Assembly: GCA_964651255.1 (NCBI GenBank)
Contig: CAZYWU010000002.1
Location: 82,038 to 145,638, forward strand
Length of the DNA: 63,601 nucleotides
Source: an uncultured Anaerolineales bacterium
GTDB taxonomy: Bacteria; Chloroflexota; Anaerolineae; UBA1429
Reading direction: 5' to 3'
In this document: positions 1 to 12,674 of the stretch, piece by piece
Position numbering within the stretch: the first letter of the stretch is position 1
How the letters are laid out: each line of letters opens with the position of its first letter
Program-made: the position numbers and the translations under genes
Notes under the pieces: generated by a model
The model's input: the letters and a program-made list of their open reading frames with translations, nothing else
The model's database searches: none
What the model was told of the DNA's origin: nothing

Positions 1-1360
1 GGAGCGCATGGTGATCGCGGCGCCTCCGGAGAACGAGGCACGCCTGCGCGAGATCTGCGATGCTCACTCCGTCGAGATGACCGTCATTGGCACTTTTACA
101 GGCGATGGGCGACTGCACTTGCGGTACGGTGAGAACATCGTTGCGGACCTTTCCATGGCGTTCCTCCACGGCGGTTTGCCGCGCCGGCATCTGACAGCCA
201 CGTGGTCAGCCCCCGCCATCAGCCAGGGACACACAGATGGACTCGCCGGGGACGAGCTGGCTACCTGCCTGCTGGCCATACTATCGGATGCCAACGTCCG
301 CAGTAAGGAGGACGTGATCCGGCGGTATGACCATGAGGTCCAAGGGGGCACAGTGGTCAAGCCGATGGTCGGGACGCGGGCGCATGGCCCCGGCGATGCG
401 GCAGTGATCCGTCCGCTGGACACGTCGGACTCGTGGCAGGGGTTCGCCCTCGGGGCTGCCTTCAACCCCGCCTACGGCGACCTCGATCCATACGCCATGG
501 CCATCTCAGCCATCGACGAGGCTGTGCGCAACATCGTCTGCGTAGGCGCTGATCCCGACCGCACAGCGATTCTGGACAACTTTTGTTGGGGCAATCCGGG
601 CTATCCGGATAGGCTCGGCACACTGGTACGGGCCCTGAAGGGTTGCTATGACGGCGCGATGGCCTATCGCACACCCTTCATATCAGGCAAAGACAGCCTC
701 AACAACGAATACATGGACACAGTGACGGGGCATCAGGTCTCGATACCGCCCTCGCTTTTGATTTCCTCGATCGGCTTGATGGACGATGTGCGCAGCGCGT
801 GCACCCCCGATCTCAAGACAGCGGGCGATGCCATCTACCTGCTCGGCGAGACCAGGCCCGAGTTGGGCGGCAGCCTGTACGCCGCGCTGGGACATGCAGC
901 AGGGTTCGCCCCCCCAGGCCAGGCACCGGCAGGCCCCGCCATCGCGAGAGCCTTGCACCGTGCCATAGTGGCGGGCCTGGTCGCCGCCTGCCACGACTGC
1001 TCCGAGGGAGGCGCAGCCGTCGCTCTCGCAGAGATGGCCATGGCGGGCGACCTGGGTGCGGAGCTGCACGTGGCGTTGATGCCACGATCCTCGCAGCAGG
1101 ATCTCGCCACCGACACGCTGCTATTCTCCGAATCCAACGCTCGCTATCTCGTCGAGGTACGCGAGCCGGATCGACCAGCCTTCGAAGCGGTGTGTGAGGG
1201 CCTGCCCTGTGCCTCCGTTGGGCGAGTTGTCGATGAACAAAGCATCACCGTGTATGGGGCTCAAACAGACAATCCCGAGTTCACACTCTCTCTGGAAGCC
1301 ATCGAGAGGGCCTGGCGAGGGCATATAGCACCCGTGCCCGCCGCGGAGGCGTTGCCATGA
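1..1360 (+). CDS. purL: Phosphoribosylformylglycinamidine synthase subunit PurL, C-terminal part (5'-partial)
   Basis: Frame is open from the window edge (ERMV...). PurL motifs: YDHEVQGGT, DEAVRN, LDNFCWGNP, ISGKDSLNN, HDCSEGG, LFSESNAR. First gene of the pur cluster. Confidence 0.95.
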   Translation, partial: ERMVIAAPPENEARLREICDAHSVEMTVIGTFTGDGRLHLRYGENIVADLSMAFLHGGLPRRHLTATWSAPAISQGHTDGLAGDELATCLLAILSDANVRSKEDVIRRYDHEVQGGTVVKPMVGTRAHGPGDAAVIRPLDTSDSWQGFALGAAFNPAYGDLDPYAMAISAIDEAVRNIVCVGADPDRTAILDNFCWGNPGYPDRLGTLVRALKGCYDGAMAYRTPFISGKDSLNNEYMDTVTGHQVSIPPSLLISSIGLMDDVRSACTPDLKTAGDAIYLLGETRPELGGSLYAALGHAAGFAPPGQAPAGPAIARALHRAIVAGLVAACHDCSEGGAAVALAEMAMAGDLGAELHVALMPRSSQQDLATDTLLFSESNARYLVEVREPDRPAFEAVCEGLPCASVGRVVDEQSITVYGAQTDNPEFTLSLEAIERAWRGHIAPVPAAEALP

Positions 1361-2175
1361 CGCATCCACGCATCCTGATAATGCACGCGCCCGGCACCAA
1401 CCGTGACCGCGAGGCAGCCATGGCGTGTACCGCTGCGGGGGGCATGCCTGAGATCATACACATGAACAGGCTTGTCAGCGGCCAGGTCAAACTGGACGCC
1501 TATCAGATGATCGTCATACCCGGGGGATTCTCCTTTGGCGATGACCTGGGCGCCGGACGGCTCTGGGCGAACGACTTGACCCTCCACCTCCGCCAGGAAC
1601 TGGACGCCTTTGTGGCCAGCGGCAAGCCGGTGATGGGCATATGCAACGGCTTCCAGGTGCTGGTCAAAGCCGGATACCTGCCGGGACCGGCCCCGCTGCA
1701 AACTGCGAGCCTGACCTATAATCGCGGAGGCCACTTTGAGTGTCGCTGGGTACGACTTCGCGCCCTGCCGCAAAGCCCCAGTGTGTTCACACAGGGTTTG
1801 GATCAGGACATCCTTTGTCCCGTTGCCCATGGCGAGGGGCGGCTGGCGCTGCGAGAACCCGGGCAGGCCGCAAGTCTGATTGAGAGCGGCCTGGTGCCTC
1901 TCCGGTACGTGGCAGTGCTGAATCCTGGTGACGAGGATAACGCATCGGCTGACACACCGGTGGAGCCCGTGGCAACCTATCCGCACAACCCTAATGGCTC
2001 ACCGGCGGATATCGCGGCACTCTGCAACGCAGCGGGCAACGTACTCGGGCTGATGCCCCACCCTGAGGATCACATCCATCCGTTCCAGCATCCACGCTGG
2101 TCGCGCGGAGCGACCGGGGGACTGGGGTTGGTGCTCTTTGCCAACGGCGTGCGGGCTGCCAGGGCTTTTGTCTAG
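1357..2175 (+). CDS. purQ: FGAM synthase glutaminase subunit PurQ
   Basis: PGTNRD, GGFSFGD, GICNGFQ (catalytic Cys), AHGEGR, LMPHPE (His-Glu). ATGA overlap with purL. Confidence 0.96.
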   Translation: MTHPRILIMHAPGTNRDREAAMACTAAGGMPEIIHMNRLVSGQVKLDAYQMIVIPGGFSFGDDLGAGRLWANDLTLHLRQELDAFVASGKPVMGICNGFQVLVKAGYLPGPAPLQTASLTYNRGGHFECRWVRLRALPQSPSVFTQGLDQDILCPVAHGEGRLALREPGQAASLIESGLVPLRYVAVLNPGDEDNASADTPVEPVATYPHNPNGSPADIAALCNAAGNVLGLMPHPEDHIHPFQHPRWSRGATGGLGLVLFANGVRAARAFV

Positions 2176-2190
2176 GAGAGTCGCGGTAGC

Positions 2191-3600
2191 ATGACAGAGT
2201 ACAGTCACGACACGTATATCTCGCCCTTTACCTGGCGCTATGGCAGTGACGCCATGCGACAGATCTGGTCACAGCTGCATCAGCGCCGGTTGTGGCGCCG
2301 AGTCTGGGTGGCTCTCGCGAGTGTGCAGGCTGAGGCAGGCCTGGTCACAGAGGCGCAGGTTGAGGACCTGCGTGCCCATCAGGATAACATCGACTGGGAG
2401 CGCGCCCAGGAGCTCGAACGCGACTTGCACCATGATCTCATGGCAGAAGTACGCGCCTACGCGGAGCAGTGTCCCATCGGTGGCGGCATCATTCACCTGG
2501 GCGCGACAAGCATGGACATAGAAGACAACGCAGAAGCGATGCGCATCGTCCAGGCGTTGAGACTGGTGAGACAGGGACTGGTGTCTCTTTTGCTGGCACT
2601 GGTCGAGCGCATGGAGGCCGAGGCCGACACGACGGCCATGGCCTATACGCACATCCAACCCGCTGAGCCGACCACCATCGGCTACCGGCTATCGCAATAT
2701 GCTTACGACCTGCTGTGTGACCTCCAGAGCCTGGATGCGCTGACGGTGTACGGCAAGGGCTTTAAGGGGGCCGTAGGCACCTCTGCTTCATACGCGCACC
2801 TGCTGGAAGGCACGGGCATGAGTTCCGCCGAGATGGAGGAGCGGATCATGCAGCGCCTGGGGCTCACAGCGGTACCCGTGAGCACCCAGACGTACCCGCG
2901 CAAGATGGATTACAGCGTCCTCACCTTGCTGGCAGGCATCGCCGCATCGGCGCACAAATTGGCCCTGGACCTGAGATTGCTCCAGTCGCCGGTGTTTGGC
3001 GAGCTGTCCGAACCCTTTGGCCGGCAGCAGGTCGGCTCGTCAGCGATGCCCTTTAAGCGGAACCCGATCAACGCCGAGAGCATCTGCTCGCTGGCACGAT
3101 ACGTTTCGACGCTTCCTCAGGTCGCCTGGAGCAATGCAGCTCTATCCATGCTCGAGCGCACCCTCGACGATTCGGCGAATAGACGAGCGATTCTGCCCGA
3201 CGCTTTTCTGGCCATCGACGAGATCCTCACGAGGTTGACCCGCATTATCCAGGGGCTACAGATCGGACGTGAGGCGATCGCGCGGAATCTTGCGATCTAT
3301 GGGCCCTTTTCGGCAACCGAGCCACTGCTCATGGAGCTCGTCAAAGCCGGTGCCGACCGGCAGGCGATGCACGAGACGATTCGTCGCTGCAGCATGGCGG
3401 CCTGGGCCGCCATTCAGGCAGGGCAACCGAACCCCTTGATCGATCTGTTGGCTGCAGACGAAAACGTACTGCGATGGCTGCCGGCCGAGACCGTGCGCCG
3501 TGTTCTGGGGCGCGGTGCTGACACTGGCGACGCAGCATCGCGCTGCCTCGCGCTGACCGATCGCATTCGAGACTATACGCGGAAGCGTCCGCCGGCGTGA
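2191..3600 (+). CDS. purB: Adenylosuccinate lyase (ADSL-like subfamily)
   Basis: IHLGATS, YTHIQPA, GSSAMPFKRNP signature; pur operon context. Confidence 0.96.
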   Translation: MTEYSHDTYISPFTWRYGSDAMRQIWSQLHQRRLWRRVWVALASVQAEAGLVTEAQVEDLRAHQDNIDWERAQELERDLHHDLMAEVRAYAEQCPIGGGIIHLGATSMDIEDNAEAMRIVQALRLVRQGLVSLLLALVERMEAEADTTAMAYTHIQPAEPTTIGYRLSQYAYDLLCDLQSLDALTVYGKGFKGAVGTSASYAHLLEGTGMSSAEMEERIMQRLGLTAVPVSTQTYPRKMDYSVLTLLAGIAASAHKLALDLRLLQSPVFGELSEPFGRQQVGSSAMPFKRNPINAESICSLARYVSTLPQVAWSNAALSMLERTLDDSANRRAILPDAFLAIDEILTRLTRIIQGLQIGREAIARNLAIYGPFSATEPLLMELVKAGADRQAMHETIRRCSMAAWAAIQAGQPNPLIDLLAADENVLRWLPAETVRRVLGRGADTGDAASRCLALTDRIRDYTRKRPPA

Positions 3601-3627
3601 GCCGTCAGGGCAAAAGGAGTCATTGAC

Positions 3628-4392
3628 ATGAGCTACAAAACGATGTTCGGAGAGCGCCTCGCGGAGGGCAAGACCAAGATCGTCTACGCCCATCCCACGC
3701 GCCATGACATGGTCTACCTGGTGCACAAGGACCGAATCAGTGCCGGTGATGGTGCCAGAGTCAACGAGGTGCCAGGCAAAGGCGAGCTGGCCTGCCGCAC
3801 GACATCGAACGTTTTTTACGTACTGGAGCAGGAAGGTATCGATACCCACTATGTGGGGCTGGTCGAGCCAGGGGTGAACCTGGTGGTGCGCTGTGAGATG
3901 GTGCCATTGGAAGTAGTGATGCGCCGCATCGCCACCGGGTCGTACCTGAAGCGACATCCCGAAGTCAAAGAGGGACACCGCTTTGACCCGCCCCTGGTAG
4001 AGTTCTTTTTCAAGAGCGATGAGCTGCACGACCCCCTGGTGGATGATGACGAGATCAAACAGATGGGCCTCGCAGAGCAGCGTGAGATCGATGAGATGCG
4101 CCAGACTGGCCGCCGGGTATTCGCGATTTTGGAAAAGGCCTGGGCCGGACAGGGCGTGACCCTGGTGGATCTCAAGATCGAGTTCGGACGCGATACTGAA
4201 GGAACGCTGATGGTGGCTGACGTTATCGATAACGATTCATGGCGGCTCTGGCCTGGCGGGGACAAGAATCGCATGTTGGACAAACAGGTTTACCGCGACA
4301 TGCCCGATGTCACGGACGAGGGCCTGCGCGCGCTCATGAGCAAGTACGCTCAGGTGGCCGCACTTACCGACAAGTTCATCGAGGAAGAGTAG
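3628..4392 (+). CDS. purC: SAICAR synthetase, PAICS/Ade5-type
   Basis: EGKTK, RRIATGS, DLKIEFG, DVIDNDSWRLWP, DKQVYR. SD AAGGAG upstream. Confidence 0.96.
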   Translation: MSYKTMFGERLAEGKTKIVYAHPTRHDMVYLVHKDRISAGDGARVNEVPGKGELACRTTSNVFYVLEQEGIDTHYVGLVEPGVNLVVRCEMVPLEVVMRRIATGSYLKRHPEVKEGHRFDPPLVEFFFKSDELHDPLVDDDEIKQMGLAEQREIDEMRQTGRRVFAILEKAWAGQGVTLVDLKIEFGRDTEGTLMVADVIDNDSWRLWPGGDKNRMLDKQVYRDMPDVTDEGLRALMSKYAQVAALTDKFIEEE

Positions 4393-4425
4393 CGCACGGG
4401 CACCGTAATGTTGCCAGGGGTGAGA

Positions 4426-4938
4426 ATGTCTGGTAGACTAATTATTATAATGGGTTCGCTGGCCGACCGGGATCACGTGAACAAGATCGTGGAGGCGTGC
4501 GCTTCTTTTGGATTGGCAGTTGAGCAACATGTGGCCTCGGCGCACAAGAGCGCCCGCTATCTGCTCGATCTTCTGCAGGCGCAAGAGAACAAGGGCGAAA
4601 ACGTCGTCTATATCACCGTCGCCGGCCGTTCCAACGCTCTGAGCGGTATGGTCGATGCGAACGTCAGCGCCCCGGTGATTGCGTGCCCTCCCATCTCCAG
4701 CGCCTTTGGCGGTGCAGATATCTACTCCTCGTTGCGGATGCCAACCGGAGTTGCCCCTCTGTTGGTGCTCGAACCCACAGCCGCTGCGCTTGCCGCAGCG
4801 AAAATCCTGTCGCAGAGTGATGATGCCCTCCGACAGACCGTGCGAAGGTATCAGGCTTCGCTGACTGAGCAAATCATCCATGACGATGGCGTCCTCGGTC
4901 TGGAGCAGCGTGGATCGGCGGGCGAAAGGACGATATGA
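4426..4938 (+). CDS. purE: AIR carboxylase PurE, class II-like (alternative in-frame ATG at 4408)
   Basis: IIMGS, SAHK, AGRSNAL, PVIACPP, SSLRMP. AGGGG SD-like sequence before ATG 4426. Confidence 0.92.
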   Translation: MSGRLIIIMGSLADRDHVNKIVEACASFGLAVEQHVASAHKSARYLLDLLQAQENKGENVVYITVAGRSNALSGMVDANVSAPVIACPPISSAFGGADIYSSLRMPTGVAPLLVLEPTAAALAAAKILSQSDDALRQTVRRYQASLTEQIIHDDGVLGLEQRGSAGERTI

Positions 4939-6383
4939 CGATTTGTGATTTTGAGCATGCGGACCATCCGCACGAGGAGTGCGGTGTTTTCGGCATCTAT
5001 GCCCCGGGCGAGGCGGTAGCCCGGATAACCTTTTTCGGACTGTTTGCCCTGCAGCATCGCGGCCAGGAGAGCGCCGGCATCGCTGTCACGGACGGCTACA
5101 CAGCGCGACTCCACAAGGACATGGGCCTGGTCACTCAGGTCTTTAACGAGACGAATCTGGCGCCGCTACAGGGCCACATTGCGGTGGGCCATACCCGTTA
5201 CTCCACCGCCGACTCGTCGCGTCCGGTGGCCGCGGGCCCGTTCCTGCTCGAATCGATGGTGGGGCCGATTGCGCTGGCGCACAATGGCAACCTGGTAAAC
5301 ACGGGCGAGTTGCGCCGCAAGCTCTTTGAGCGGGGCGTCGGCCTGGCGTCGAGCTGTGACTCTGAGGTAATCATCCAGATGCTCGCCGGGGCACAGGGCG
5401 ACAATATGGTGGACCGCATCAAAGAGATGATGAGCATGGCCCTGGGGGCTTATTCCCTCACGGTACTCACCCGTGACGCTCTCTATGCGGTACGTGATCC
5501 CTGGGGATTCCGGCCGCTGAGCATGGGGCGACTGAACGGTGGTTGGGTGGTAGCCTCGGAGAGCTGCGCGCTGGAGACCGTGGGTGCACGCGACATCACC
5601 GAGATCGCCCCCGGGTCGATTGTGATGATGGATGCCAGCGGTGCGCGCATCGTTCAGGGACGCAAACCAGAAAAGTCCAGCCTGTGCATCTTTGAGTACA
5701 TCTACTTTGCGCGACCGGACAGCATCATCGACGGCCAGCTGGTTCACGATGTGCGCCAGGAGCTCGGACGCCAGCTGGCCCGAGAGCATCCCGTCGATGC
5801 CGACCTGGTCATGGGTGTTCCGGACTCGGCCACAGCGGCGGCGATTGGCTATGCGCAGGAGGCGGGCATCCCCTTCGGGGAAGGCCTCATCAAGAACCGG
5901 TATATCGGCCGCACGTTCATCCAGCCCGATGATCGCCTCCGCAAGGCCGGCGTCGCACTCAAATTCAACCCGCTGGCACAGGGCCTTAAGGGCAAGCGTC
6001 TGATTGTGGTCGATGACTCGATCGTTCGCGGTAACACAACCGCGCCCGCTGTAGAGCTCCTCAGGCGGGCGGGAGCGCGCGAGGTGCACCTGCGCATTTC
6101 ATCGCCCCCCATCAAGCACCCTTGCTTCATGGGGGTCGATATGGCCACCTACGGTGAGTTGATCGCACATCGCATGACGATCGAGGAGATCAGGCAGCAT
6201 GTTGGCGCCGACACGCTGGGCTACCTCAGCCTTGAGGGTATGATCAAGGCGCTGCACAGACCCAAGGAGCGTTACTGCACAGCCTGTTTCTCTGGAGAAT
6301 ACCCCTTCGAACAAAGGGCGGGCGGCTTTCTGGACAGGGAGATGCAACCCTGTGGCGTGACGGGGAACGCGTCATGCCTGTAA
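4935..6383 (+). CDS. purF: Amidophosphoribosyltransferase (propeptide, Fe-S type)
   Basis: Propeptide then CGVFG, QHRGQESAG, GHTRYST, HNGN, VDDSIVRG, HPCFMG and YCTACF Cys ligands. Confidence 0.97.
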   Translation: MTICDFEHADHPHEECGVFGIYAPGEAVARITFFGLFALQHRGQESAGIAVTDGYTARLHKDMGLVTQVFNETNLAPLQGHIAVGHTRYSTADSSRPVAAGPFLLESMVGPIALAHNGNLVNTGELRRKLFERGVGLASSCDSEVIIQMLAGAQGDNMVDRIKEMMSMALGAYSLTVLTRDALYAVRDPWGFRPLSMGRLNGGWVVASESCALETVGARDITEIAPGSIVMMDASGARIVQGRKPEKSSLCIFEYIYFARPDSIIDGQLVHDVRQELGRQLAREHPVDADLVMGVPDSATAAAIGYAQEAGIPFGEGLIKNRYIGRTFIQPDDRLRKAGVALKFNPLAQGLKGKRLIVVDDSIVRGNTTAPAVELLRRAGAREVHLRISSPPIKHPCFMGVDMATYGELIAHRMTIEEIRQHVGADTLGYLSLEGMIKALHRPKERYCTACFSGEYPFEQRAGGFLDREMQPCGVTGNASCL

Positions 6384-7660
6384 AGGTACTTGTCGTCGGA
6401 TCGGGCGGCAGGGAACACGCGCTGGCGTGGGCACTCAGCCGCTCGCCCCAGCAGACCGAGCTGTACGCTGCCCCGGGCAACGGTGGGACGGCGGCCATTG
6501 CCACCAATGTACCCATCAAGGCGGAGGACGTAGCGGGGATCGTGTCCTTCGCCCGCGACAAAGAGATCGATCTGGTGGTCGTTGGCCCGGAGGCTCCGCT
6601 TGCGCTGGGCCTGGTGGACCAGCTCCAGGCCGCGGGTATCCGCGCCTTCGGGCCGAGCGCAGCCGCCGCGCGTATCGAGGCATCCAAGGCATTCAGCAAG
6701 ACCTTTATGCGCGAACATGGCATCCCGACGGCAGCCTATGGCAATTTCACCGACTATGGCTCCGCCCTATCGTATCTGGACGCTCACCCGGTCCCGATCG
6801 TGCTCAAAGCCGATGGGCTCGCCGCGGGCAAGGGTGTCCTGGTCTGCGAGACAGATGATGAGGCGCGCGATGCCTTGCGAGCGATCATGGTCGACCATCG
6901 CTTTGGCGCCGCCGGGGATCGCGTCGTCATTGAGGAATTCCTGACAGGGCAGGAAGTCTCGGTGCTCGCCTTTTCAGACGGAAAACATGTCGAACCGATG
7001 CTCTTGTCACAGGATCATAAAGCGGCCTACGACGGCGATCGCGGCCCCAACACCGGCGGCATGGGGTGCTATGCTCCTGCGAACATTCTGAACCCGCCGA
7101 TGCTGCAACGTGTCGTCGCTGAGGTCCTGCAGCCGACCGTCGACGGGCTCGCAGCGGCCGGGACGCCCTATGTGGGGGTCCTGTACGCTGGCCTCATGAT
7201 CCAGGACGATGACTTTACTGTGCTCGAGTTCAACTGCCGTTTTGGAGACCCCGAAGCGCAGGTCATTCTACCGCTGCTTGAGACCGATCTGCTCAGTGTC
7301 CTGGAAGCGTGCGTCGCTCAGGAGCTCGATCAGATCGGACTGCGTTGGACGGGCAAAAGCGCCGCCTGCATCGTCCTCGCATCGGGCGGCTACCCGGGTG
7401 ACTATGAGCGCGGGCTGGTCATCGAAGGGCTGGATAGCGTCCCGCAAGGCGACGATCTGATCGTGTTCCATGCAGGAACGCGCCAGGACGGCAAACGCCT
7501 GATCACCGACGGCGGGCGCGTGCTGGGCGTGACTGGCATCGCCGACAACCTGCGGGACGCTCTCTCAAAGGCCTATGCCGCCGCGACGAAAATTCACTGG
7601 CCAGGGATGTTCTACAGGCGCGACATCGGAGCCAAAGGGCTGGCGCAGGAGGGCCGATGA
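6374..7660 (+). CDS. purD: Phosphoribosylamine-glycine ligase
   Basis: GSGGREHAL, APGNGG, KADGLAAGKGV, GPNTGGMG, EFNCRFGDPE, YRRDIG. Confidence 0.98.
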   Translation: MPVKVLVVGSGGREHALAWALSRSPQQTELYAAPGNGGTAAIATNVPIKAEDVAGIVSFARDKEIDLVVVGPEAPLALGLVDQLQAAGIRAFGPSAAAARIEASKAFSKTFMREHGIPTAAYGNFTDYGSALSYLDAHPVPIVLKADGLAAGKGVLVCETDDEARDALRAIMVDHRFGAAGDRVVIEEFLTGQEVSVLAFSDGKHVEPMLLSQDHKAAYDGDRGPNTGGMGCYAPANILNPPMLQRVVAEVLQPTVDGLAAAGTPYVGVLYAGLMIQDDDFTVLEFNCRFGDPEAQVILPLLETDLLSVLEACVAQELDQIGLRWTGKSAACIVLASGGYPGDYERGLVIEGLDSVPQGDDLIVFHAGTRQDGKRLITDGGRVLGVTGIADNLRDALSKAYAAATKIHWPGMFYRRDIGAKGLAQEGR

Positions 7661-8688
7661 CCGGGAACGCATACGCACGGTCAGGAGTAAACATCACCGC
7701 CGGAAACCGGGCTGTCGAGTTGATGGCCGCCTCGGTGCGCTCCACCTACGGTCCCGAGGTCCTGCTGGGTATCGGCGCCTTTGGCGGGCTGTTTGACGCA
7801 TCGCGGCTTCAATCCATGTCCCATCCCGTGCTGGTGGCATCCACCGACGGCGTGGGCACCAAAACGGTCGTCTCCGGTGCGCTGGGGTGCTACGAGCATC
7901 TCGGACGGGACATCGTCAACCACTGTGTCAATGACATCCTGGTACAGGGAGCCGAACCCCTCTTTTTCCTTGATTATGTCGCTTCCCCTCACCTGGACCC
8001 GCAGCTGGTCGCAGAAGTGGTCTCTGGAGTGTCGGCCGCATGCCGGGAAGCGGGCTGTGCCCTCCTGGGTGGCGAGACGGCAGAGATGCCGGGCGTCTAC
8101 GCCCCGGGGCAAATGGATATTGCCGGCACCATTGTGGGCGTTGTCGAACGCGACGAGATCATCGATGGCACCCGGATCGTCGCCGGTGACGCACTCATCG
8201 GGCTGGGCTCACACGGCCTTCATACCAATGGCTTTTCTCTCGTCCGGAGCATATTCTCCGCAGACGACTATGGCAGGTTCAGCGAGGTGCTGGGCTGCTC
8301 GCTGGGAGAGGCCCTGACCAGGCCGCATCGTTCCTATCTTACGTTGGTGCGCGCCATCCGCCGTGTCGCAGACATCAAAGGGCTGGCACACCTCACCGGC
8401 GGGGGCTTTATCGAGAATATCCCCCGCATCCTGCCGCAGGGTCTCGGCGCCCGCATCGATCGCCGCAGCTGGGTAGTGCCCCCGCTCTTCGAGTTGATTC
8501 AAACACACGGCCAGGTAGACGCACTGGAGATGTACCGCGTCTTTAATATGGGGATCGGGATGGTCGTGGTCGTCGCCCCGGAGGACGTGGAAAAAGTACA
8601 GACTGTGGTCGCCAGCGATGCGGGCGAGACTGCGCCCGTCATCGGCGAGATCGTGACCTCTGGCGAGGGGCCACGCGTCACGCTATGA
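7657..8688 (+). CDS. purM: AIR synthetase
   Basis: Y..SGV, TDGVGTK, GGETAEMPG, HTNGFSL, HLTGGG, FNMGIG. Confidence 0.97.
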   Translation: MTGNAYARSGVNITAGNRAVELMAASVRSTYGPEVLLGIGAFGGLFDASRLQSMSHPVLVASTDGVGTKTVVSGALGCYEHLGRDIVNHCVNDILVQGAEPLFFLDYVASPHLDPQLVAEVVSGVSAACREAGCALLGGETAEMPGVYAPGQMDIAGTIVGVVERDEIIDGTRIVAGDALIGLGSHGLHTNGFSLVRSIFSADDYGRFSEVLGCSLGEALTRPHRSYLTLVRAIRRVADIKGLAHLTGGGFIENIPRILPQGLGARIDRRSWVVPPLFELIQTHGQVDALEMYRVFNMGIGMVVVVAPEDVEKVQTVVASDAGETAPVIGEIVTSGEGPRVTL

Positions 8689-9299
8689 ACCATCTGGCTG
8701 TATTCATCTCCGGTACTGGCACCAACCTGCAGGCCATCATCGACGCGATAGAGTCGGGCCGGCTGCCAGACACGCGCATTTCTGTGGTCGTCTCCAACAA
8801 AAAAGCGGCACAAGGCCTGCAGCGCGCACACAGACACAACATCCCGACCATGTACTTGCCTTTTTTGCCGTACCGTCAGCAGGGTTTGTCCAGAGAGGAC
8901 TATGACCGGGATCTCGTGGCGAGACTGAGCGAATACCCCATAGATCTGGTTGTCCTGGCCGGATGGATGCACATCTTTAGTATGGTATTCCTCCAGCACT
9001 ACCCGCGGGTGTTGAACATACACCCCGCTCTGCCTGGCACCTTTCCAGGGACGCATGCCATCGAGGATGCCCTGCGGGCGTTTCAGCGCGGAGAGATCAC
9101 AGAGACCGGTGTGATGGTCCACTGGGTGCCGGACGAGGCTGTCGATAGCGGGCCCGTAGTCATGTCAGAGGTTGTGCCGATTTACCCGCAGGACACACTG
9201 GAAACTCTGGAGGAGCGGATTCACGCTGTGGAGCACGATCTCTACGTACGTGCGATCGCCAGCGTCCTCGGCGTCGAGTTGAACGAACGCCCCGGGTAA
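8685..9299 (+). CDS. purN: GAR formyltransferase
   Basis: ISGTGTNLQAIID, LAGWMHI, NIHPALP, GVMVH, DSGP. Confidence 0.96.
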   Translation: MNHLAVFISGTGTNLQAIIDAIESGRLPDTRISVVVSNKKAAQGLQRAHRHNIPTMYLPFLPYRQQGLSREDYDRDLVARLSEYPIDLVVLAGWMHIFSMVFLQHYPRVLNIHPALPGTFPGTHAIEDALRAFQRGEITETGVMVHWVPDEAVDSGPVVMSEVVPIYPQDTLETLEERIHAVEHDLYVRAIASVLGVELNERPG

Positions 9300-10262: not shown

Positions 10263-12674
10263 GTGGCACTCTTTGGCCCTCCCAACATTGACCGTCTGGT
10301 AGCGAACCAGGACATCCCCGGCCTGATCAAGGCCTCCGAGTACGAACACGATGCCGACATCCGACGTCAGGCGTGCGAGGCACTCGGTCTCATGCCGGAC
10401 GAGCAATCGCTCGCCCCACTGATTCGTCGCTTGATCGACAGCGAGTTCGCGGTTCGGGAAGCGGCAGCCAAAGCACTGGGACAGATAGGCGATCCCCGCG
10501 CAATCGACGCTCTTGCGGCCGTTGTCGAAAGCGAGCAAGAAGACCTTTCGCCGGCCGCCATCGAGGCTCTCGGTTATATCGGCACCGCCGAGGCCGTTCC
10601 GACCTTGCTGCTGTGCCTCTCGGATGAGTCCCTGGTTGACGTCGCGGTCGAGGCGCTGTCCCGCACCGGTGCACCCGCGGTGGTGCCGCTGATGGAGATC
10701 ATCAGGAGCAAGGACAGGGACGAAACAATCAAGGCTAACGCCTCCAGAGCGCTGCACGGCATGGCACCACAGGTGGCCTATGATCTTGCGCCTCTGGTGG
10801 GCGACCGCAGAAGCATGGAACGCTTTGTCGCGGCGCGCGCGCTCGGGGAGTTGGGCACCGAGGAAGCAATCTCCGTGCTCGTCACCATGCTCGGCTCCAC
10901 CGATCTGCAGCTCCAGCCTCACGTACTGGCCGCACTGGCACAGATTGGTACCAATGCGACACCCGCGCTGGTAGAGGCACTGGAATCGGAGAGCCGTCTG
11001 CAGCAGAGATCCGCCATCGATGCGCTCGGACGCATCGCTGACCCCATGGCAGCCGGGCCCCTTGCGAAGATCATTGCCGGCGACAATCCTGTCTTGCGCG
11101 ACCTGGCGCTACAGGCCCTGGCACGGATCCCCGACGACGCGGCTTTGGAGTCGATCACCGCCCTTCTGAACGACAACAACTGGTCTGTCCGCCGGCAGGT
11201 GGCAACAGCCCTGGGATTGGCCGGCAGGCGCGACGGCGTCCCTGCATTGCTCCAGCTACTGCGAGACGAAAACCAGGCCGTACGCCGCTCGGCGGCGGCT
11301 TCTCTGAGCCAGGTTGGCTGGCGCCCTAATAACGAGACGGACCCGGTGGCAGCGGCCAGCTACGCTGTAGCCATGGGATACTGGAACCGAATCGAGCAGT
11401 ATGGCGCCGATGCCGTCGCACCGATTCTCGCCTGTTTGGCGGACAACGCCTGGGAACAGCGGCGACAGCCTACAGAGATGCTCGCCAAGATCGGCGAGCC
11501 CGCCGTGGAACCCTGTATCCAGGCGCTCTCAAACCCCGATCGCGGCGTACGCCACTCGGCAGCGTATGCGCTCGGCAAGATCGGTGACACCCGTGCCGTG
11601 CAGCCACTGATTGCCCTGATGTCCGACGGGATCGAGGAAGTACGCGCCACGGCAGCCCGCAGTCTTGGCCAGATCGGTGACCCGGCCGCGATCCCCGTGC
11701 TGGGGGAGCACCTGACCGACGTCCAGGCCGTTCGTGGCCCGGCCGCGGATGCGCTCGTCCGCATTGGGGATGAAGGCACACCCGTCCTCCTGGAGGCGCT
11801 CAAATCCGAGGATGCGGGCGTGCGGGCGATCGTCGCCGATGCTCTGGGAAACACCCACTCACTGGCCGCCGCGAACGCACTGATCGCGCATCTCACAGAT
11901 GATGCAGAGCCTGTGCGTCAGGCCGCCGTACGCGGCCTGGTACACCTGGACGAGGTGGCGATCGAGCCGCTCTATGAGCAGATCGATGCAGAGGACGCCC
12001 TGGTGCGCGTGTCCATCGCGGCGATCTTTGGACAGATTGCCCGTCCAGAGTGCGTTCCGGCGCTCTATACCCTGGTGCGGTCAGCGGACCAACCTGTTCA
12101 GATCGCTGCAGCAGCAGCACTGGAAAAGATCTGGCTCAAGAAGGCGGCCAGCACCGAACCTCTTGAGAACGTCGCTGAAATGTACGTAATGACCTTTACC
12201 GACGCCCCTGAGGACGACGAACTGCAGAGCTGGCTCATCTCTGAGGCCTTCGGCGATCTGACGACCGCGCGTCCGGATCTGCAACGCGTTCACACGCGCA
12301 TCATGGTGGACCAGAGCCGGTTGCACGAGTCACACGAGTCAGCAAAAGCTTACGATTATGCTTACGGCCCGATGTACAACCGGTTCGTTTCATGGATCGA
12401 GGCGGAAGGTGGACTCATCGAGGAATGGGAGAGCCGCTTTTATCACCGGGAGATCAGCACGGCAGACGAGCCGCCGGCGACGCACGTGGTGTTCCTCTAC
12501 TATGCGGCCGGTCCCGAGGAAGAGATGGAAGAGCATCTCGAGCGGGAAACGGACGACGAGGGTGGTGAGGCCGAAGAGACTGGGAAGCCCGGTGCAGCGG
12601 CCCCGGGTGACGAGGCCGAGGATGTCGCCACCGCGGTAGAGGACACTGACGCGGGTGAAACACCAGAGGGGTAG
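10263..12674 (+). CDS. PBS-lyase HEAT-repeat protein with unknown C-terminal domain and acidic tail
   Basis: Many VRxxAAxALGxIGDxxAVxxLIxxL repeats. GTG start with AGGAGG SD. E/D-rich end. Confidence 0.9.
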   Translation: MALFGPPNIDRLVANQDIPGLIKASEYEHDADIRRQACEALGLMPDEQSLAPLIRRLIDSEFAVREAAAKALGQIGDPRAIDALAAVVESEQEDLSPAAIEALGYIGTAEAVPTLLLCLSDESLVDVAVEALSRTGAPAVVPLMEIIRSKDRDETIKANASRALHGMAPQVAYDLAPLVGDRRSMERFVAARALGELGTEEAISVLVTMLGSTDLQLQPHVLAALAQIGTNATPALVEALESESRLQQRSAIDALGRIADPMAAGPLAKIIAGDNPVLRDLALQALARIPDDAALESITALLNDNNWSVRRQVATALGLAGRRDGVPALLQLLRDENQAVRRSAAASLSQVGWRPNNETDPVAAASYAVAMGYWNRIEQYGADAVAPILACLADNAWEQRRQPTEMLAKIGEPAVEPCIQALSNPDRGVRHSAAYALGKIGDTRAVQPLIALMSDGIEEVRATAARSLGQIGDPAAIPVLGEHLTDVQAVRGPAADALVRIGDEGTPVLLEALKSEDAGVRAIVADALGNTHSLAAANALIAHLTDDAEPVRQAAVRGLVHLDEVAIEPLYEQIDAEDALVRVSIAAIFGQIARPECVPALYTLVRSADQPVQIAAAAALEKIWLKKAASTEPLENVAEMYVMTFTDAPEDDELQSWLISEAFGDLTTARPDLQRVHTRIMVDQSRLHESHESAKAYDYAYGPMYNRFVSWIEAEGGLIEEWESRFYHREISTADEPPATHVVFLYYAAGPEEEMEEHLERETDDEGGEAEETGKPGAAAPGDEAEDVATAVEDTDAGETPEG

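Follow-up and report, generated by a model that had tools for sequence, protein, structure and literature searches.

Predicted PAICS-type purC and class II purE, very probably separate cistrons in an Anaerolineae purine operon

The window analyzed here, meaning the whole stretch of DNA, spans 63.6 kb from an Anaerolineae (Chloroflexota) bacterium, and all coordinates are positions within it unless a relative is named. Its first part carries a run of codirectional purine biosynthesis genes, with the following features:

8..9299, + strand: compact pur operon, according to NCBIfam assignments, spacings, and overlaps
8-1360, + strand: purL, truncated at the window edge
1357-2175, + strand: purQ (NCBIfam)
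2191-3600, + strand: purB (NCBIfam)
3628..4392, + strand: purC, 254-aa open reading frame, predicted PAICS-type SAICAR synthetase
4390-4392, + strand: purC stop codon TAG, after ...DKFIEEE, read as a genuine terminator
4393..4425, + strand: intergenic spacer of 33 nt, read as untranslated
4416-4423, + strand: Shine-Dalgarno (SD)-like AGGGGTGA, inside the purC/purE spacer
4426..4938, + strand: purE, 170 aa, predicted class II (AIR carboxylase type), stop codon at 4936-4938
4935..4938, + strand: ATGA overlap of the purE stop and the purF start
4935-6383, + strand: purF (NCBIfam)
6374-7660, + strand: purD (NCBIfam)
7657-8688, + strand: purM (NCBIfam)
8685-9299, + strand: purN (NCBIfam)

The order purC, then purE, is the domain order of PAICS (SAICAR synthetase followed by AIR carboxylase), as an earlier note on this DNA had pointed out. 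The same note had remarked that purC ends in ...DKFIEEE-TAG and that its frame continues open into purE, and this description is exact: past the TAG, the purC frame reads RTGTVMLPGVR and then MSGRLIIIMGS, the start of PurE, with no second stop, and the purC ATG at 3628 and the purE ATG at 4426 are 798 nt, or 266 codons, apart. Immediately 5' of the latter ATG stands CCAGGGGTGAGA. The SD-like AGGGGTGA is separated from it by 2 nt (GA), and the AGGGG core of this motif by 5 nt. A second in-frame ATG lies upstream, at 4408, and is less likely to be the purE start. A scan for promoters and terminators yielded nothing stronger than weak consensus matches; two of them, sigma-70-like, fall at positions 4411-4448, in the spacer and the beginning of purE, against 0.5 expected from shuffled sequence, and could represent a possible internal promoter. 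Beyond the operon, at 10263-12674, the window encodes an 803-aa HEAT-repeat protein with several matches to NblB and to CpcE/CpcF-type phycobilisome lyase/degradation repeats, in an Anaerolineae host that is apparently non-phototrophic.

The E. coli purC, purE, and purK sequences were retrieved and aligned as real comparators. PurC and PurE of the window are 30 to 32% identical to their E. coli counterparts. The best PDB matches of PurC are the SAICAR-synthetase domains of PAICS, namely, those of Bombyx mori (4ja0; 1.6e-64) and human (2h31; 2.8e-61), and free-standing PurCs match more weakly in the same search (1.5e-44 for M. jannaschii and 2e-28 for E. coli). Bit scores show the same separation, with 221 and 210 to PAICS versus at most 155 to other PurCs. 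In the alignment, window PurC carries the motif ADVIDNDSWRLWP and a DKQVYRD tail, and the E. coli counterpart of the motif is GDEFSPDGSRLWD. Both marks by which we recognize the PAICS type, a DVIDNDSWR(L/I)WP motif and a DKQ(V/S)YR tail, are present in window PurC, and PAICS-type PurCs form a clade with 100% neighbor-joining (NJ) bootstrap. PDB ranking, motifs, and clade agree and support the assignment of this protein as a predicted PAICS-type SAICAR synthetase.

For PurE, the class II enzyme of T. denticola heads the PDB ranking (3rg8; 1.4e-40), followed by PAICS (5.6e-26) and class I proteins (about 1e-12). The match to 3rg8 scores 142 bits and pairs residues 5-157 of one protein with residues 5-157 of the other. 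We aligned the motifs with those of T. denticola, human, E. coli, and one Chloroflexota class I PurE. Window PurE has SAHK, AGRSNALSG, ACPP, and SSLRMP, at places where E. coli PurE, 30% identical overall, has SAHR, AGGAAHLPG, GVP, and SIVQMP. In an NJ tree that includes T. denticola and class I sequences, the class II clade is separated from class I with 100% bootstrap. Similarity, class-specific motifs, and the tree support a putative class II PurE, that is, an AIR carboxylase (EC 4.1.1.21). The subtype assignments of the earlier note have held up for both proteins: the motifs that it quoted are found in both, and the E. coli counterparts that it gave agree with the real E. coli sequence, which shows GDEFSPDGSRLWD, SAHR, AGGAAHL, PVLGVP, and SIVQMP.

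The E. coli-type system, with its own PurC and a class I PurE/PurK pair, takes the same steps from AIR to CAIR to SAICAR. The class I route requires PurK and ATP and proceeds via N5-CAIR. With E. coli PurK as a tblastn query (E ≤ 0.01), no homologue was detected anywhere in the 63.6-kb window, and none was found within 3 kb of any class II purE locus. In two other Chloroflexota loci, L108 and L143, purK directly follows a class I purE. In these two (at about 3446-5501 and 1564-3208, respectively) and in two further Chloroflexota metagenome contigs, L105 and L155, purC is of the PAICS type and purE is of class I, its product sharing 65 to 66% identity with the E. coli protein; PAICS-type PurC accordingly occurs with either class of PurE. 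Members of the Chloroflexia, Ktedonobacteria, and Thermomicrobiales mostly lack a purE within 3 kb of purC.

Both window proteins fall under the equivalog cutoffs of the corresponding NCBIfam models. PurC reaches 180.7 bits (3.9e-53) against a purC cutoff of 189.9, and PurE reaches 124.9 bits against a purE cutoff of 149.6, so automatic pipelines give them loose names. Fused bacterial relatives are likewise named simply "AIR carboxylase family protein" or "SAICAR synthase." Annotation has a gap where the subfamilies of PAICS-type PurC and class II PurE belong.

From the frame shared across the TAG, the earlier note had proposed that the pair is a recently broken bacterial PAICS, an ancestor-like pair poised for fusion, or a gene read through its amber codon. 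As inferences from the frame, these proposals are not supported by a comparison with the rest of the window and with related loci, in which frames and spacers vary, TAG is common, and neighboring genes are in frame as well. At the base composition of the window (61% G+C), the stop probability is 0.029 per codon, which gives a joint probability of about 0.24 for a downstream gene being in frame with zero stops over 11 codons. Two junctions just upstream have the same layout. Namely, purQ runs past a single TGA and ESRGS into purB (15 nt; 2173-2190), and purB runs past a single TGA and AVRAKGVID into purC (27 nt; 3598-3627), so that the starts at 1357, 2191, 3628, and 4426 all fall in a single common frame. 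Among the codirectional gene pairs of the window with a positive spacer, 7 of 16 are in frame, and none of these seven has an extra stop. TAG terminates 20 of 50 crude gene calls in the window. The in-frame, single-stop arrangement of purC and purE is no more than chance would produce, and the frame is incidental.

We then scored every purC/purE junction in at least 160 loci, drawn from the species representatives of GTDB and from JGI/ENA metagenomes; junction statistics refer to the 42 of them in which purC is followed directly by a class II purE. The closest 100-plus PurC homologues, all 249 to 261 aa long, come from Anaerolineae and other Chloroflexota, and the nearest genome (L003), an Anaerolineae MAG from an anaerobic membrane bioreactor, is 97% identical. 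At the 42 junctions, spacers range from -4 nt (an ATGA overlap) to 210 nt, and all three stop codons occur. The purC genes of relatives end within a few residues of the same point, with TAA, TGA, or TAG, and their translated spacers have nothing in common. Variable frames and spacers in relatives belong to what the earlier note had itself named as evidence against readthrough or fission. An SD-like motif lies within 20 nt of the purE start in 40 of the 42, and the MSGRL start of window PurE fits the M-x-G-[RK]-[VL] starts of its relatives. The SD-like site to which the earlier note had drawn attention is present in the window, and its recurrence in relatives favors independent initiation of purE.

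Frames at the 42 junctions are distributed 21:9:12, or about 17:7-9:11 after near-identical loci are merged, and the nonredundant distribution gives a chi-square p of 0.11 to 0.25. Frame 0 is found in 17 of 35 to 37 nonredundant lineages (one-sided binomial p of 0.04 to 0.08, uncorrected for phylogeny); this mild excess may be a weak historical signal. We dropped frame enrichment as evidence, given that the nonredundant frame-0 share is near the 7 of 16 seen for unrelated pairs in the window. An enrichment among loci with at least 68% PurC identity was dropped as well, its threshold having been picked post hoc and the lineages being related.

TAG together with frame 0 is confined to the immediate clade, consisting of L003 and L083 with spacers of 33 nt and L004 with a spacer of 24 nt. 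The next sister lineages (L084, L011, and L015), whose spacers measure 748, 106, and 173 nt, are out of frame or have multiple stops. If the TAG arose by a recent nonsense mutation in a fused gene, or if programmed or leaky amber readthrough yields a functional fused PAICS-like protein, the common frame, the single TAG followed by C, and the survival of the frame through a 9-nt indel in L004 would all find an explanation, and the would-be linker, at about 20 residues, would be only slightly above real ones (7 to 16 residues). Several observations make this very improbable. The fused homologues all have at most 58% identity in the PurC domain, while closer homologues are about 254 aa long; the split state is common to all 39 Anaerolineae-type lineages, with variable frames; and the frame-0 relatives L007, L009, and L045 have two stops. 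The spacer itself points the same way. Between the window and L003, substitutions at codon positions 1/2/3 number 9/6/50 in purC and 11/9/41 in purE, and 1/3/1 in the spacer, against 20/15/91 for the two genes together (Fisher p of 0.027); since it lacks a third-position bias, the spacer is not evolving as coding sequence, and its peptide is unconserved. TAG is a frequent terminator here, and within the window no readthrough signal turned up: ARAGORN gave tRNA-Arg(CCT) alone, with no tRNA-CUA; the Rfam scan returned nothing at the junction, or anywhere other than the tRNA; and the fold of the junction RNA is not more stable than those of shuffled sequences (z-score of 0.24). Overall, programmed readthrough or recoding would be marked by a frame and an open spacer kept among relatives and by coding-type conservation past the stop, and the related loci do not show this pattern. 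Trace near-cognate readthrough of TAG-C may occur.

An assembly or sequencing error that created the TAG in a truly fused gene, for which the shared frame is the one argument, can practically be dismissed, as the identical TAG or C terminus recurs in independent assemblies: the position is the same in L003 (a GTDB MAG), L083 (an ENA sediment metagenome), and L004, and the related protein P0001 terminates at ...FIEEE, like window purC. Very probably, then, purC and purE are two separate cistrons of one Anaerolineae purine operon and are translated separately. The two activities would accordingly reside on two polypeptides, rather than on one as in PAICS.

Fused forms of the same pair exist in bacteria, in which P0007 (413 aa) and P0101 (434 aa) are encoded within bacterial-style pur operons. 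When P0007 served as the query, PF01259 and PF00731 occurred together in 116 of the 120 best clusters, at a length of about 424 aa, and insect PAICS scores in the range of the bacterial fused clusters. Named sources of the fused clusters are Armatimonadota, Eremiobacterota, Ca. Binatus, Dormibacterota, Acidoferrales, and Patescibacteria. In Ca. Tumulicola (Eremiobacterota), purB and purL flank the fused purCE gene on a scaffold of 1.96 Mb. The gene order there (L168/L169, 4583-13275) is purB, purCE, purL, purQ, an unknown gene, a purS-like gene, and two DUF1246/DUF1297 genes; we take the last two to be PurP-like, that is, an archaeal-type FAICAR synthetase, which would be unusual in a bacterium. 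Since fused purC-purE genes are widespread in bacteria, the window holds the split version of a module that is largely bacterial. When the earlier note spoke of a split animal PAICS, it was right in that both subtypes are PAICS-like, but "animal" was too narrow. In the searchable literature, we found no papers that deal with PurC-PurE fusions of bacteria or with a Chloroflexota PurC of the PAICS type.

One transition between the two states is documented. Fused P0007 is sister to split P0237 (locus L165) with 95% bootstrap, and their DNA differs by a 2-nt indel at the ATGA purC/purE overlap (L001, 2330-2430, versus L165, 4705-4805). The transition is a frameshifting indel and not the gain or loss of an in-frame stop. 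In the P0237 lineage (L165, 2529-3998), guaB, encoding IMP dehydrogenase, lies between purM and purC of the pur operon.

The direction in which the module evolved was addressed with distance-based NJ trees with bootstrap for PurC, PurE, and the concatenated PurC and PurE, rooted with three standard PurCs, four class I PurEs, and E. coli alone, respectively. According to the PurC and concatenated trees, split Chloroflexota form one clade, with 57 to 60% bootstrap, nested among fused clades, and fused genes alone make up the earliest branches. The split Chloroflexota pair might accordingly descend from an ancestral fused purCE that broke at the base of the lineage, a scenario in which the present frame is no relic. 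Fused genes in several other bacterial lineages agree with it, and the P0007/L165 pair proves that such transitions happen. Yet the deep nodes have 12 to 60% bootstrap and the outgroups are small, and the PurE-only tree instead sets free-standing forms, T. denticola included, apart from most fused ones, with P0007 and P0101 basal. We regard such a deep fission as rather doubtful. The reverse scenario, in which the split state is ancestral, fusions arose repeatedly, and the window preserves an ancestor-like condition, seems to us similarly doubtful. Standard PurC and class I PurE always come from two genes, which makes the split state ancestral at some depth, and the P0007 fusion has a split sister with genes that overlap by ATGA, the difference between the two being a 2-nt indel. 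However, that sole documented case arose at an ATGA overlap and not by losing an in-frame stop, the in-frame state is nothing special within the pur operon, and the topology, though weak, favors a fused ancestor inside the PAICS-type clade.

Among characterized proteins, the class II PurE of T. denticola, an AIR carboxylase (Tranchimand et al. 2011, as cited in PMC10484210), is the closest to window PurE. Both are free-standing proteins of about 160 to 170 aa that share SAHK, AGRSNALSG, ACPP, and SSLRMPxG, and T. denticola PurE groups with the free-standing class II PurEs of Chloroflexota in the NJ tree. Window PurE differs by an extra C-terminal tail of 13 residues. Animal PAICS (human 2h31 and Bombyx mori 4ja0) has the same domain subtypes in the same order, with matches of 1e-61 to 1e-64 for PurC and 1e-25 to 1e-26 for PurE. 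However, it is one polypeptide of 425 aa, whereas in the window a stop, a spacer, and an SD-like site stand between two cistrons. The animal enzyme also has a 6-residue insertion in its SAICAR-synthetase domain (around residues 150-160 of human PAICS, within ...AAKFCFAGLL...) that is absent from every aligned bacterial form, fused or split. The bacterial fused proteins (P0007, P0101, and P0121-P0235) share the domain subtypes and the pur-operon context and are 47 to 52% identical to the hypothetical readthrough product of the window. Their linkers are 7 to 16 residues long, and all but P0007 fall in clades of their own, away from the split pair of Anaerolineae.

Our preferred explanation, separate translation of the two cistrons, would work as follows. 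Translation of purC stops at the TAG at 4390, as conservation and stop-codon usage show, and purE would start independently at the ATG at 4426 from AGGGGTGA, to judge from the conserved start and the SD-like motifs of relatives. From its homology and motifs, PurE is expected to carboxylate AIR directly with CO2, yielding CAIR without PurK or ATP; PurC, by homology, would then join aspartate to CAIR at the expense of ATP to give SAICAR. The pair would represent a bacterial PurC/class II PurE module, of which Anaerolineae consistently have the split form, and many other bacterial phyla, like animals, the fused one.

PAICS consists of an octameric PurE core decorated by PurC dimers and channels CAIR. 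Previous work noted class II PurE and eukaryote-like PurC in some archaea (PMC3261824), called the PurCE fusion "common in eukaryotes" (PMC3261824), and treated it as eukaryotic (PMC3261824 and PMC10484210). In our trees, eukaryotic PAICS forms a clade whose sister is a fused bacterial clade of the Armatimonadota type, with 79% NJ bootstrap. A broader reading, which we offer as a speculation with the odds rather against it, is that the module as a whole is bacterial in origin, animal PAICS included; that PurC and PurE of Anaerolineae form a noncovalent channelling complex; and that fusion and fission recur through small indels at the junction. Under this reading, the sister position of eukaryotic PAICS to a fused bacterial clade implies a bacterial origin of the animal enzyme.

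What the window adds by itself is an annotation point. Bacterial class II PurE has been known since the work on T. denticola (cited in PMC10484210), and public databases already contain the fused and split proteins, with generic names. The host organism probably carboxylates AIR to CAIR directly and without ATP. This type of PurE has been argued to be advantageous only at high CO2 (PMC3261824), which fits the CO2-rich anaerobic habitat of the closest relatives. The wider interest comes from the relatives and not from the coincidence of frame. Since uncultured bacterial phyla are rich in PAICS-type purC-purE fusions and the split form pervades the Chloroflexota, the origin of animal PAICS becomes testable by proper phylogenetics, and the natural split and fused variants could be used to ask whether fusion matters for CAIR channelling.
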